A stretch of 64,000 nt of DNA from Octopus vulgaris (lineage: Eukaryota), in contig OX597822.1 in the NCBI GenBank assembly GCA_951406725.2, positions 49,476,001 to 49,540,000 on the forward strand, given 5' to 3'. The translations under genes and the position numbers were made by a program. The notes beneath the pieces are model-generated. The model was not told where the DNA came from, made no database searches, and was given only the letters and a program-made list of their open reading frames with translations. Below are positions 10,978 to 41,561 of the stretch, piece by piece. Numbering within the stretch: position 1 is the first letter of the stretch; every line of letters begins with the position of its first letter.

Positions 10978-11566
10978 TACAAGATAAGAAAATGGAGAAA
11001 TACATCTAAATCAAATATCAATTACCAGATAATACTCAATCACATACTTTATTAAACCACCACATAAGAGACTGTAGGGTTAAACATAAAAAAGCAGAAC
11101 AAATCAGTGTACATAAAGGAATGTACATAAAAAAGTGTACATAAAAGAGAGATGTTGTATAATAAGTAGAATATATATAAAAAAAGAGAATACACATATA
11201 AGTAAATATAAATATAAGTATAGATTACATCTTACAGCTGTTTCGGCCATGTAGATAAGTATGTCTCATTTTACCATGAGACATACTTATCTACATGGCC
11301 GAAACAGCTGTAAGATGTAATCTATACTTATATTTATATTTACTTATATGTGTATTCTCTTTTTTTATATATATTCTACTTATTATACAACATCTCTCTT
11401 TTGTGTACATTTTTTATGTACATTCCTTTATGTACACTGATTTGTTCTGCTTTTTTATGTTTAACCCTACAGTCTCTTATGTGGTGGTTTAATAAAGTAT
11501 GTGATTGAGTATTATCTGGTAATTGATATTTGATTTAGATGTATTTCCCCATTTTCTTATCTTGTA
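10978..11566. repeat. Fold-back palindrome of a PLE pLTR-type 3' end; ~292-bp arms, 6-nt spacer
   Basis: 10978-11269 is the near-perfect reverse complement of 11276-11566; the spacer is tttacc; each arm carries GAAACAGCTGTA. Confidence 0.95.
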
Positions 11567-11629
11567 TATATATATATATATATATATATATATATATATG
11601 GCACAGTCATGCCTTTGGATATATTTATA

Positions 11630-12830
11630 TATAAACCAGAAAATAAGAAAATGGAGATATAACAATCAATAAAAATTTATCTGCAACAATCAAACATAAT
11701 CCCTTACAGCTGTTTCAATTGAGCCTAAACAGATTAAATAGCAATTACTACAATCATTCTATTAAGCAAAATCTATTCAGAGGGTTAGAAAAAAGATATA
11801 CTGTTCGGTTTTTATGTGTTGTATTTTAGAAACATCACATTATGGCTAATGTCGGTATACACCTGGGTTAGAGGGTTATAGGTTATTTTAGTGGGTAACG
11901 GATAATATGTGAATATAATTAAGGTAATAAAAGGTAAATGAATAGAGTGTGAATGGTAACTTACAGTGACGACGTGTATCGTATGAATGAGGAGATAAAA
12001 TAAATACTTTATTAACTTGTTTTTAAAATTGAGAGAAACTTAAATAATACATAAACATATATTAACATCGGTCAAAAACATTAATCTTTTAATTAGTGCA
12101 TACATACATATATATATATATATATATATATATAGATATATGCATATATATAAATATATATACATCCATACATATACATACACAAACAATAGATACAAAT
12201 AGATATGCACATATACACACATACATGGAGATACGTGTATGTGAACCAATACATGCAAAGGAATATATATATATGAAGAAACACATATGTATGTATATAC
12301 ATGTACACACACGCATATATTTATATACACACATGTATACATACACATACACATATACATATCAATACTTATACATAACGCACATTTTGCGTGTACACCC
12401 TTACATACATATGTATATATATATATATATATATATATATATATACATAGATAAGCGAATAAGTACATAGATATGAATAATATATACATACACACTCAAA
12501 ATATACACTCACCCCTAAAAACAATATTGGTATGGATCACATAAATTCAAAATAATTTGATTGGTTAATAAATTCAAATTCTCCTACTAATATTCTTAAC
12601 TACATTCTTAACTACATTCTAATAAATCTAGGTCTATCGTTGAGCATCCAATAAGGTTTGTAAATATAGAGAAACGTCAGGTTGGTATCTATTGTTAAAT
12701 TAAGATCGAATGTTTTCACAACCGATCTTGTGCTGGTCCATTGGTATTCTTAGTTAAAGCTAGAGCATCGTCCCTATAAATAGCGAAATATACACCAGGA
12801 AAAGCTTTTCCTAACGCGCCAATATCAAAA
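11630..12830 (-). mobile_element. Penelope-like element (YRDD-type RT) with pLTR hammerhead remnant, interrupted by microsatellite
   Basis: Minus strand has YFAIYRDDALALTKNTNGPAQDRL, DLNLTIDTN and YKPY; it also reads ccct-CTGAATA...GAAACagctGTA-aggg at 11701-11784. Confidence 0.75.
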
Positions 12831-12844
12831 AATTCAAAAACACT

Positions 12845-13210
12845 AAATAAGTAAAAATATTTAATAATAAACATATTAGATTTGGATTTTCAGTTTCTAC
12901 TAATCCTTTTAGGATAATATTTTCATTTAACAATAAGAAACCAGATCAATTTTATCAAAACAAAATTACTAAAATTGAACGTAGGACCTCCAACAATATT
13001 AATAAAAATCCGCATAATCCTACAATTAACAATATCAATACTAATAATAACCACAACTCTTATAATTCAACAAAACATACATATAACACAACAGCACTAT
13101 CCACAAATACAAATAGAAATTGCAGAGACCCTAATGCTTGTAAATTAGAAAGGAATTGTAAAAAGAAAGTCGTTGTATACCAGGCAACAATTATAAAGCA
13201 AGACTAATCG
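12845..13210 (+). mobile_element. PLE linker and start of GIY-YIG region, opposite orientation to the adjacent RT piece
   Basis: KIFNNKHIRFGFSVSTNPFRIIFSFNNKK and CRDPNACKLERNCKKKVVVYQATI match the PLE KIFN..SYS..HNKK and Cys-rich pre-GIY-YIG motifs. Confidence 0.7.
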
Positions 13211-14739
13211 ATATATATATATATATATATATATATATATGTGTGTGTGTGTGTGTCTGTGTGTGTGTGTGTGTGTGTGTGTGTGTGTGTGTGTGTGTGT
13301 GTTGGTTGCACTCAAAACTTGGTTAAATAGCGAATTTTGAACGACGAATCCACCTTTAGGGACCATAGAAAAGAGAACAGTGCCGGATTATCAAAAAAAA
13401 AAAAAAAAAAGAATTGCCCTTCAAAAGAAACAATATTAGTTTCTGAATTTCCTGAAAATTCCATCTAATGCCTTTCTTCTTACAGAAATAAAAATAAAAT
13501 TTGCAGATAATAACTAGAAGAAAGCTATAATTTATTGAGAATGAACGGAAACCTAGTTACTACGAGGGATTGAAGTTTCTCGTGTAAACACATGACCAAA
13601 TTCCTATTCATTAATCTATAATAACTATTTACTACCTTATTTCATAGTTTGATATTTTTTTTAAAAATCACATTATATTCTCCCATATCATTCAATATAG
13701 AACCTTATCCTATCCCCATTGTATTACTATAATATAAATTCCCTTTATATACTTTATTTTAATATTTCCCTTATGATAACTGAAGGACCTTATATATATC
13801 GGGCCATTAAGTAAATTATGTCTCTCTATACTTTTTAATTCATACGCCTGGATATATGAACTTTTATAACTGTCTATTTTCTTATTTACTCCTGTGTTTG
13901 CACATATGCGTATCCGTGTATCTGTGCTGTCTATGTGCTTACATATGTTTGTGTGTCTGTACATGCACGTAGGCTCACCCAGCATGTATATATATATATA
14001 TATATATATATATATATGCAGGTGTGTATTGGTATTGTATGCACATTCATATGGATATATGTAAGATATACCAACTTCTGCATGTAAATTGTTTGTATAT
14101 CTATGTATTTGTGTTTGAGTATAGATATATATTTTACTTATATGCATACCCTTACGTACCTATGTATATGTACTCCAATTTTTTCTCTCACCATATCTAC
14201 ATCACAAAATACTTGCATATGTTATTAGTTATTCCATTTACAGTAAAGTATATTTTTAATACTGTTATATATATACACTTGTACGTTACATTGCGGTTGT
14301 GCGTGTTTGCAACTATATCTGCATATCTATGTATACATCTAAGTGTATCTATTTTTGTATATATGTGTTTTTATGTCTATACGTATGTATGTATATATAT
14401 GTGTATGTGTATATATATATATATATATGTGTGTGTGTATATATATATTGTGCATGTATGTACGTATATAAGCATGTGTATGTATCTGTATATATGTATA
14501 TGTATGTATCTGTATATATGTGTACGTGTTTATTTACATAAAGTTTGTGTATAATTGTACATGTATATACACGTGTATCTAGTTGTGTATATGCATATAT
14601 TTCTGTATATATATGTATGTATGCCCCTTTCTCTCTATATATGCGATTGCATATACATACATTCTACTCCATGTATGATAAACATTTATCCTATAATCTG
14701 GTAACTTTATATGAACCCCTACATGTATCTATCTACTCG

Positions 14740-39822: not shown

Positions 39823-40092
39823 CAAGGGGCAGTGAACAAACTGTCGTCTAAATTAGGCAAAAATGAAAATAACACAAACATCTAATTTTAACAGATATAT
39901 TTACCAAAATTACATAAAAATATCTTGAAATGCTAAGGAGAAATTTTATTCAATAAACCCACCATTGGCTTCACCCACGCCCTCCAGACGACTTCGAAAT
40001 CTCCTGCAACTCTTCTTGAAGGTCTTTTCGCTTAAGCTGTACCCCACAGGTAATAATCAAGGGGATTGCAGTCTGGGGAGTTAGGTGGCTAG
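39823..40092 (-). mobile_element. Tc1/mariner-superfamily (DDxD, maT-like) 3' fragment
   Basis: Minus strand *PPNSPDCNPLDYYLWG; TIR-like caaggggcagtgaacaaa at 39823. Confidence 0.7.
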
Positions 40093-40504
40093 ACATTATA
40101 CACACACACACACACATACATATACACACCCATATATACATATATATATATATATATACATATATATATATTTATATATATATGTGTGTGTGTGTGTGTG
40201 TTTGTATATATATATATATATATATATATACAAAATATTTATACATGTGTATACGAACATATTATTTGAAAATATATTTTTTTTATTATGGACTTCCTTT
40301 AACACATTTGAATTTCTACTTGGCTCACTTTACATGTTGGAATATCTCGACAACTTCATTTGCTATTTGTGTGTGAGTGTGATATAACCTATCCAAACAT
40401 TTTCATTGCTTTCTTAATACTTTATTTTCTTCCTGCTTCTTCTGTTCTTTTAAGCCTGTTGCAAATGCTCGCTATTATTATTATTAATATAGCTTATGTC
40501 GTAA

Positions 40505-40625
40505 CGGGCAAAATGATTAGCAACATTTCGTTCGTCTTTACGTTCTGAGTTCAAAATCTGCCGAGATCAACTTTGCCTTTCATCCTCAGTTGAGCATTGG
40601 TGCCAGTCTAATCGACTTACCCACT
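40505..40625 (+). mobile_element. SINE family A fragment
   Basis: acgttctgagttcaaa and ctttgcctttcatcc. Confidence 0.8.
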
Positions 40626-41312
40626 TCCTGGAATCGCTGTTCAGTTAATATTCATCATTGTTTGTTAATATTAAATGCACGTTCTGTTAACTATTGCTTT
40701 GTTATATTTTATCTTATGCTCTAATGTTTACTTTTTCAACTGTTGCATTGATTTGTCAGCGTATTACTAAGAATTAATGTCATTGCTTTAGCAACTGTGA
40801 ATATAAATATATTTTTCTGTTCAACATAAGTAATACTGAGATGTCATTGCTCTTAAATATTTACATATTGCTCGATTCTTGCTTCACTTCACTTCATTCT
40901 GTGTGTAATAATATTTGGTCGTATAACTGTAAGTTATATATTAACAAACAATACAATTCTTTCGTTCTATTTGCATGAAATGAATGGCAATATTATGAGT
41001 GAGATGGGCATAATTTTTTATTAGACGTAAATGTAAGTAGGATAACGATATTTTTGATGAGATTTTGTTTAGTAACGAACTGTATTAAAAATGCATTGAA
41101 GTATGAATATATGTATCTATATATATATGTATGTGTGTGTGTGTGTGCGTGCGTGTATATATATATATATATATATATATATATCTACACATACATACAT
41201 ACACACACACACACACACACACACACACACACACACACACACACATATATATATATATATTTCGTTTTTGTATTACAAGATTCTTTATGCGAATTCGTAT
41301 GTTGAAGCATAA

Positions 41313-41561
41313 TTGTTTGGGCAGAGTCATTCTGTTTTAATGTCTCATTAATTAACAAACTCACCGGTTCGATTTCCACTCATTTGCTTATTTAGTTTTT
41401 CTAAAAGTTTCGTTGCTTCTTGCAACCTCTTCAAGAGTCGACTCTTGAAGAGGTTGCAAGAAGCAACGAAACTTTTAGAAAGAATAAATTAATAAATAAG
41501 TGGAAATCGAACCGGTGAGTATGTTAATGCATTAAAACAGAATGGCTCTCCCCAGACACAA
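41313..41561. repeat. Fold-back palindrome with a perfect spacerless 84-bp core containing a hammerhead-like motif
   Basis: 41398-41481 is perfect around gtc|gac; each arm reads TTGAAGA-ggttgc-aagaa-gcaac-GAAAC; the outer arms are diverged. Confidence 0.93.

Follow-up and report, generated by a model that had tools for sequence, protein, structure and literature searches.

What kind of event leaves almost perfect palindromes, several of them with a hammerhead ribozyme near the axis, between (TA)n tracts? The question is raised by a 64-kb stretch of Octopus vulgaris DNA (contig OX597822.1, 49,476,001 to 49,540,000), here called the window, from a microsatellite-rich genome of 2.8 Gb in 227 contigs. 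An initial annotation had described five such palindromes, made of the ends of Penelope-like elements (PLEs), and proposed that a cDNA primed at a broken (TA)n tract stalls near the ribozyme, snaps back and copies itself. Our analysis favours another route, to which we give a probability of roughly 60%: the two ends left by a cut in a (TA)n tract would start reverse transcription at two fixed positions in the element RNA and the two cDNAs would then be joined, snap-back being left to a minority of the insertions.

Comparing the window with itself, we located all five palindromes where they had been described, at 10977-11567, 16567-16789, 33670-34100, 36757-36930 and 41314-41558. Their self-complementarity is 98%, 97%, 98%, 93% and 86%, and their spacers measure 6, 1, 7, 10 and 0 nt in the same order, within the 0-10 nt previously given; the 3' ends of the elements point outward, as had been said. 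Each palindrome also has an unpaired family tail of about 55-170 nt on one arm, which lies beyond the coordinates first assigned. Four palindromes had been reported to abut (TA)n on at least one side; with the tails counted these four touch (TA)n on both sides, and the fifth (36757-36930) on none.

Searches of the octopus genome itself assigned each palindrome to a separate PLE family, in agreement with the claim of several sequence families; we refer to them as F1 (palindrome at 33670), F2 (10978), F3 (16570), F4 (36761) and F5 (41313). In all five families, PLE coding sequence is present in longer copies, a finding that speaks against the distinct class of ribozyme-bearing palindromic element that had been suggested. 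Reverse transcriptase (RT) and a GIY-YIG-type endonuclease (EN) at the C-terminus were read in F1 at loci L031, L240, L250 and L262; the EN of longer F3 copies matches that of F1 at 55-63%; F4 has an EN upstream of its pseudo-long terminal repeat (pLTR) in L316, F2 about 2.3 kb upstream, and longer F5 copies contain RT pieces and EN. In F1, the family examined for this feature, pLTR and tail continue into the 5' end of the open reading frame (ORF) as a partial tandem (L263, L264, L265, L268 and others). The RT and EN domains of the parent ORFs were assigned from motifs that we take to be diagnostic. A Pfam search of six ORF pieces from these families returned no significant match, and the nearest Atlas clusters consisted of unnamed proteins of eukaryotes; in some of these clusters 16-20% of the members have RVT_1. 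A Cys linker (CX2-5CxxC) between RT and EN is a trait of the Neptune/Nematis clades; F5 has CX4CxxC at this place, F2 and F4 have CxC-x5-C-x5-C, and F1 and F3 have no Cys there. On such motifs the families may be Neptune-like. Between RT and EN, the F1 ORF (L031:3772-5985, L240:3419-4336) also contains an insert rich in Asn that includes an (AAT)n run, and F1 targets (TA)n despite its lack of a Cys linker, a point that bears on the idea of linker-directed TA targeting. Judged by sequence, then, the five palindromes are 5'-truncated head-to-head stumps of EN-containing (EN+) Penelope-like retrotransposons, one from each family.

To characterise the ends of these stumps, exact 27-base end patterns were searched for in the genome, with 317 matches for F1 and 1024 for F3. 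The first 100 F1 matches, with partner matches merged and three duplicate copies dropped (L244 and the second copies in L236 and L249), gave 75 insertions, entered by hand in a table in which coordinate 0 is the end of the pattern. For F3, the first 47 matches gave 40 loci, of which the ambiguous L288, L295 and L326 were left out of the pair count. Arms of F1 end either at +8, the internal site AATATATA, or at +155/160, the end of the tail, with a single case at +145; those of F3 end at +3 or +160 only, and the best matches of F2, F4 and F5 follow the same two-end pattern. The two ends are combined in a strict way. Among the 75 F1 insertions 48 have two arms, and 47 of these consist of one tailed and one tailless arm, against one with two tailless arms and none with two tailed; the remaining insertions are single arms, 11 tailed and 16 tailless. 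All 23 clear F3 pairs likewise have one arm of each kind.

This rule also bears on whether the palindromes exist at all in the octopus genome. That they are fold-back chimeras of library preparation or assembly is hardly conceivable, because substitutions and indels distinguish the two arms (self-match 86-98%) and random fold-back would not respect two fixed ends or leave a tail on one side. From arm divergence and the end rule across the family, both read in the sequence, we regard the palindromes as real. Words sampled from the window were found, half of them or more, in 5 of the 24 sequencing runs listed, with no RNA run listed among the holders.

The 5' ends of the arms are, in contrast to the 3' ends, variable. 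For the 47 F1 pairs, the tailed arm contains only tail, without overlap with its partner, in 13; the tailless arm reaches more than 10 nt further 5' in 13 (by up to 2.3 kb in L250), the tailed arm is the longer in 9, and the arms end within 10 nt of each other in 12. The 23 F3 pairs divide into 4 tail-only, 8 with the tailless and 10 with the tailed arm longer, and 1 symmetric. Despite these differences in length, the arms of a given insertion have the same source: F1 arms at the same locus agree at 100 of 101 polymorphic-site comparisons (30 overlapping pairs), against 1236 of 1752 across loci, and at 43 of 43 where the tailless arm is the longer, kilobase differences included. Both arms therefore derive from one template or one source locus, and we infer a single RNA, not a pair of transcripts from one locus. 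In 26 of 47 F1 pairs and 12 of 23 F3 pairs the second arm holds sequence that the first lacks, and thus cannot be the product of one folded-back cDNA; as a general rule, the stall at the ribozyme followed by snap-back of a single cDNA is not supported. The five window cases, selected for looking like perfect hairpins, are the symmetric minority.

Some tail-only F1 arms deserve a separate mention: six of the 13 (L046, L226, L232, L234, L235, L247) stop at +28 to +42, shortly before the internal site, as though two reactions had run into each other. Two loci show a whole two-armed insertion twice in mirror image, tail to tail via a few TA units in one (L249:951-1592) and with copies 475 nt apart in the other (L236:787-2024); later inverted duplication or an assembly effect may be responsible.

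Enrichment at (TA)n, predicted by the initial annotation, is strong. Since (TA)5 runs are common, with 101 in the window, a background control was needed for any TA contact: a (TA)5 run lies no more than about 10 nt from 122 of the 126 F1 arm ends, compared with 1.2-1.8% of unmasked positions lying within 10 nt of one. Both F1 end sites, the internal motif and the tail end, are themselves TA-like. A (TA)n tract is self-complementary, and therefore both of its cut ends offer the same primer. The two-ended priming that we propose would then begin with a cut of the (TA)n tract by the GIY-YIG endonuclease of the element. One cut end would prime at the TA-like motif at the tail end of the element RNA and the other at the internal TA-like motif, about 150 nt upstream; the two short cDNAs would then likely be joined head to head. 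In the symmetric minority, the tailed cDNA likely snaps back at a short natural palindrome, and the snap-back copy would end at the point that lets the internal TA motif base-pair with the second end of the target.

Several observations weigh against two-ended priming. F1 has more near-symmetric junctions than expected, 12 of 47 against 2.6, a number reached in none of 20000 permutations, and this speaks in favour of the original snap-back proposal. In F3 symmetric junctions show no excess (1 of 23 against 0.8 expected). The arms overlap on the template in 34 of 47 F1 pairs; such overlap is foreign to twin priming of the L1 type and needs strand displacement or a second transcript. At L241 an A-run is mirrored by a T-run at the junction, which is a signature of snap-back. 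Junction microhomology of at least 2 nt occurs in 9 of 40 cases, compared with 19% expected, so that this crude method showed no excess. Deletion of the palindrome centre after insertion could also make unequal arms. Finally, target-site duplications are unreadable within (TA)n, and no empty allele was seen. We take snap-back to be a real minor route, likely responsible for about a quarter of the two-armed F1 insertions and many of F5; the five window palindromes, chosen for symmetry, are likely enriched for it, and some of them are probably its products.

It could also be argued that all two-armed insertions begin as snap-back hairpins of one tailed cDNA, and that unequal arms arise by later central deletion, long palindromes being unstable. 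This would account for the tailed-plus-tailless rule and the identity of the arms, as well as for the F1 symmetric excess, the A-run/T-run junction and the concentration of F5 axes at a 4-bp quasi-palindrome that lies 5' of the core. However, it requires a deletion in each of the 26 F1 and 12 F3 pairs just mentioned, in young copies that are 92-100% alike near their ends, as well as initial hairpins of more than 3 kb for L250 and L205 and the loss of the entire tailed arm in the 16 single tailless F1 insertions. The F5 hairpin is moreover absent from the DNA fold of one copy, and internal initiation has been shown in vitro for another PLE (PMC11167929). We consider this explanation unlikely.

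Concerning the hammerheads, motifs were annotated by eye from the sequence. Putative canonical cores were recognised in the F1, F3 and F4 families, and a CCGAAGA variant in F2. Folding at minimum free energy did not form the whole hammerhead: stem II of F1 forms and stem I does not. In Rfam, no hammerhead family appeared among the 150 of 211 matches listed, which comprised only simple-repeat and hairpin microRNA (miRNA)-like matches. The whole motif is kept, among the five window palindromes, only in the F1 copy with its axis at 33885. Here (TA)31 (33462-33523) precedes a tail of about 146 nt (33524-33669, minus strand) and a tailed arm (33670-33888, minus) that begins at about -211 and holds a whole hammerhead with its core at 33809 on the minus strand; the tailless arm (33889-34100, plus) begins at about -204 and terminates in (TA)23 at 34095-34140. 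On the plus strand, the predicted type I hammerhead (33955-34039) reads stem I AUUUUC/GAAAAU, CUGAAGA at 33961, a long stem II, GAAAC at 34022, a palindromic stem III and the GUA cut triplet.

In the F2 and F3 copies the axes lie inside stem II, at 11272 and 16678, as had been claimed, and both copies hold only the 3' half of the hammerhead. The F2 insertion starts from a (TA)n tract at 10628-10806, the left half of the target, followed by an unpaired tail of about 170 nt on the left arm only (10807-10976, minus), which matches the 3' extension of other F2 copies, and by the tailed arm (10977-11275, minus; 5' end about -295); its tailless arm (11276-11567, plus; 5' end about -288), with GAAAC-stem III-GUA at 11301-11312, terminates in (TA)17 at 11565-11598. 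The F3 tailless arm (16567-16677, minus) terminates in (TA)8 at 16553-16568 and carries the hammerhead half at 16627-16638; the tailed arm (16679-16786, plus) begins within stem II and is followed by a tail of 155 nt (16787-16941, plus) and (TA)9.

Only four palindromes had been associated with hammerheads, and this has to be revised, as the F4 family bears one too. The window copy (arms 36757-36930) lacks it, with an axis at about 36843, some 5-15 nt 3' of the family cut site; its shortened tail (36664-36756, minus) adjoins a (TG)n tract and not (TA)n. As for F5, the ribozyme had been placed next to an axis at 41440; the position is borne out, with the axis at 41439/41440 beside a degenerate minimal-hammerhead-like motif (41444-41478), whereas the family core reads UUGAAGA..GAAAA and not CUGANGA. 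The F5 family motif has a 3-bp stem I, broken in the window copy, and no stem III loop. Its arms (41314-41561) lie between a tail of about 55 nt (41261-41313, minus), preceded by (TA)7 at 41246-41259, and (TA)40 at 41565-41644.

Does the ribozyme determine where the axes fall? We expressed 5' ends as rates per 1000 nt at risk; the F5 sample and part of the F3 sample consist of best-scoring matches and are not unbiased. For F1 the rates are 5.2 inside the hammerhead, 4.6 at the cut site, 4.3 just 5' of the core and 1.7 further up, with a hotspot of 20.8 at -219 to -201, 70-85 nt upstream of the core, where a CCATGG palindrome lies. Several full-length F1 5' pLTRs begin at this hotspot, which may thus represent run-off at the transcript start. 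In F3 the rate is 5.5 within the hammerhead and 1.6 at the cut site, where 7 nt hold 1 end; it is 9.8 in the 15 nt 5' of the core (8 ends) and 2.8-6.0 elsewhere. Of 41 F5 arm ends, 11 fall within 15 nt of the hammerhead-like core on its 5' side, a rate of 39.9 against about 9 on either side, and F2 5' ends run from about -59 to -342, with the cut site at -252. An apparent spike of F1 ends at the cut site (4 ends at -56 to -59) was not above the local rate and was discarded, and a sharp F3 cluster at -135 to -138 proved partly a single-reference artefact, reduced to a mild rise with 19 references. There is no accumulation of ends at the cut site of the hammerhead, and each family has hotspots of its own.

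The claim that axes cluster near the ribozyme is consequently true of F5, weakly of F3, and not of F1. A reverse transcriptase that stalls at the hammerhead and snaps back there, as first proposed, finds support in the rises just 5' of the core in F5 and F3; in F1 neither the core nor the ribozyme interior nor the cut site shows a rise, the hotspot lying well upstream, the F3 cut site has a single end and F2 ends are spread. A stall would in addition be expected at the 3' side of the structure, not the 5' side. We judge this version quite improbable. The main reason why the hammerhead lies near the axis is its distance from the priming site, 60-130 nt (250 nt in F2), together with the similar shortness of most cDNAs.

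Variable axes had been proposed as a sign of de novo formation, and 33 F1 palindromes have 30 distinct axes, between -17 and -970. This makes it very improbable that the palindromes are non-autonomous elements, similar to miniature inverted-repeat transposable elements (MITEs) or to retrozymes, that move as a unit. Many F5 loci do share nearly the same axis, and the arms of old F5 copies are not mutual closest relatives, a weak indication at 10-15% divergence; however, the ends are unequal because of the tail, and in all five families the arms grade continuously into ORF-bearing copies. Unit movement is ruled out for F1 and F3. A MITE or palindromic DNA transposon was also considered and rejected, for want of a fixed axis or equal terminal inverted repeats. 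Likewise a non-LTR retrozyme does not fit, as the five window insertions are inverted pairs with mostly half a hammerhead or none, not the direct tandem units, each with a whole hammerhead, described for retrozymes (bioRxiv 10.64898/2026.07.22.740005).

The density of about one palindrome per 10 kb had been thought notable. The window has 5 TA-anchored palindromes in 64 kb, compared with 11 across 300 kb sampled at four other places, and is therefore between typical and about twofold rich. A sixth insertion of the same build, overlooked before, lies at 50658-51238 between (TA)25 and (TA)10, with its tailed arm on the minus strand and a partial tandem with a hammerhead-like motif on the plus strand (GAAAC at 51056); its family, F6, makes TA-anchored palindromes in three places of the 300-kb survey.

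Other features were noted in the window. Decayed remnants of PLE-type GIY-YIG EN lie at 13142-13618, split by a (TA)(TG) tract, and at 17897-18031, and short F2-like 3' stumps stand beside TA tracts at 11619-11661 and 17105-17137. At 48314-48730 there is a 356-nt palindrome (89%) resembling a short interspersed element (SINE), with both ends near (TA)n and the left one joined to the 3' stump of another repeat; it suggests fold-back of non-PLE DNA at TA tracts. A perfect palindrome with 27-bp arms and a 2-nt spacer (42583-42638) has no TA tract nearby, and at 53366-54149 a 62-nt inverted pair (100%) in SINE-like sequence encloses about 660 nt, possibly coding.

As a tentative extension of two-ended priming, which we hold somewhat short of probable, the reaction might be coordinated: a dimeric RT-endonuclease would set the two TA-like sites of one RNA on the two cut ends, making tail and inverted pLTR, two hallmarks of PLEs that have long lacked an explanation, products of one step. 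If this were true, the genome would contain of the order of 100,000 short head-to-head insertions (11 per 300 kb scaled to 2.8 Gb), and the two arms of each would record the length of each cDNA. Taken singly, the insertions are PLE stumps of an ordinary kind; what makes them valuable is that they form a large natural data set on PLE integration. For annotation, such palindromes should be taken neither for MITEs nor for miRNA hairpins.

EN+ PLEs are described with an inverted 5'-truncated copy adjoining the 5' end, a one-sided tail, junction palindromes, a hammerhead in the pLTR, a (TA)n insertion bias (Naiad, Hydra, Neptune) and an Asn-rich insert between RT and EN (PMC8557442, PMC3846280), features that recur among the octopus families. 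Truncated inverted copies, tails on one side and a preference for TA are thus PLE traits already in print, as are opposite-strand hammerhead pairs, found 100-700 bp apart in Schistosoma (PMC4209133). The octopus insertions differ in that they are mostly non-coding stumps, their tails measure 55-175 nt compared with 30-40 reported, and the one-tailed-one-tailless rule and the tail-only arms are counted here. Searches of an open-access library yielded neither this strict rule nor twin priming of PLE inversions, and the main text of the O. vulgaris repeat paper (PMC13282606), in its accessible part, lists Penelope families without mention of hammerheads or palindromes. With respect to the minimal type I hammerheads of PLEs, which have a short palindromic helix III (Cervera and de la Pena 2014, PMC4209133), the octopus motifs have a long stem II in F1-F4, a U4C core in F2 and, in F5, a U3 core without G8A covariation. 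Animal non-LTR retrozymes are also non-coding, hammerhead-bearing and PLE-related, as with the octopus insertions, but consist of units repeated directly in tandem, each with its hammerhead (bioRxiv 10.64898/2026.07.22.740005).

PLE integration was called undefined by Craig et al. 2021 (PMC8557442). The model of Arkhipova 2013 (PMC3846280) involves self-priming on an antisense template, whereas here priming would take place from both target ends. A precedent is L1 twin priming, in which one RNA is primed by two DNA ends, at its terminus and at an internal position, with a 5' inversion as the outcome (Kojima 2010, PMC2912911); the octopus PLEs differ in having a fixed internal site, a self-complementary target and, in 34 of 47 pairs, overlapping arms, from which palindromes result. 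A further parallel is with the Poseidon element PAc of Anolis, which in vitro cleaves and extends both strands of an AT-rich target, starts reverse transcription at two internal sites marking the limits of the tail, is a predicted dimer and can dispense with ribozyme cleavage (Frangieh et al. 2024, PMC11167929). Two start sites bounding the tail, cutting and extension of both strands and an AT-rich target are common to PAc and to our model. The PAc start sites have no homology to the cut DNA and lie in an AC-rich stem loop, while the octopus sites are TA-like and match the target, and the available PAc text draws no link between its two start sites and the arms of inverted insertions. The pairing rule, the tail-only arms and the common source of the arms lead to a concrete model of two-ended priming, testable with this existing in vitro system.

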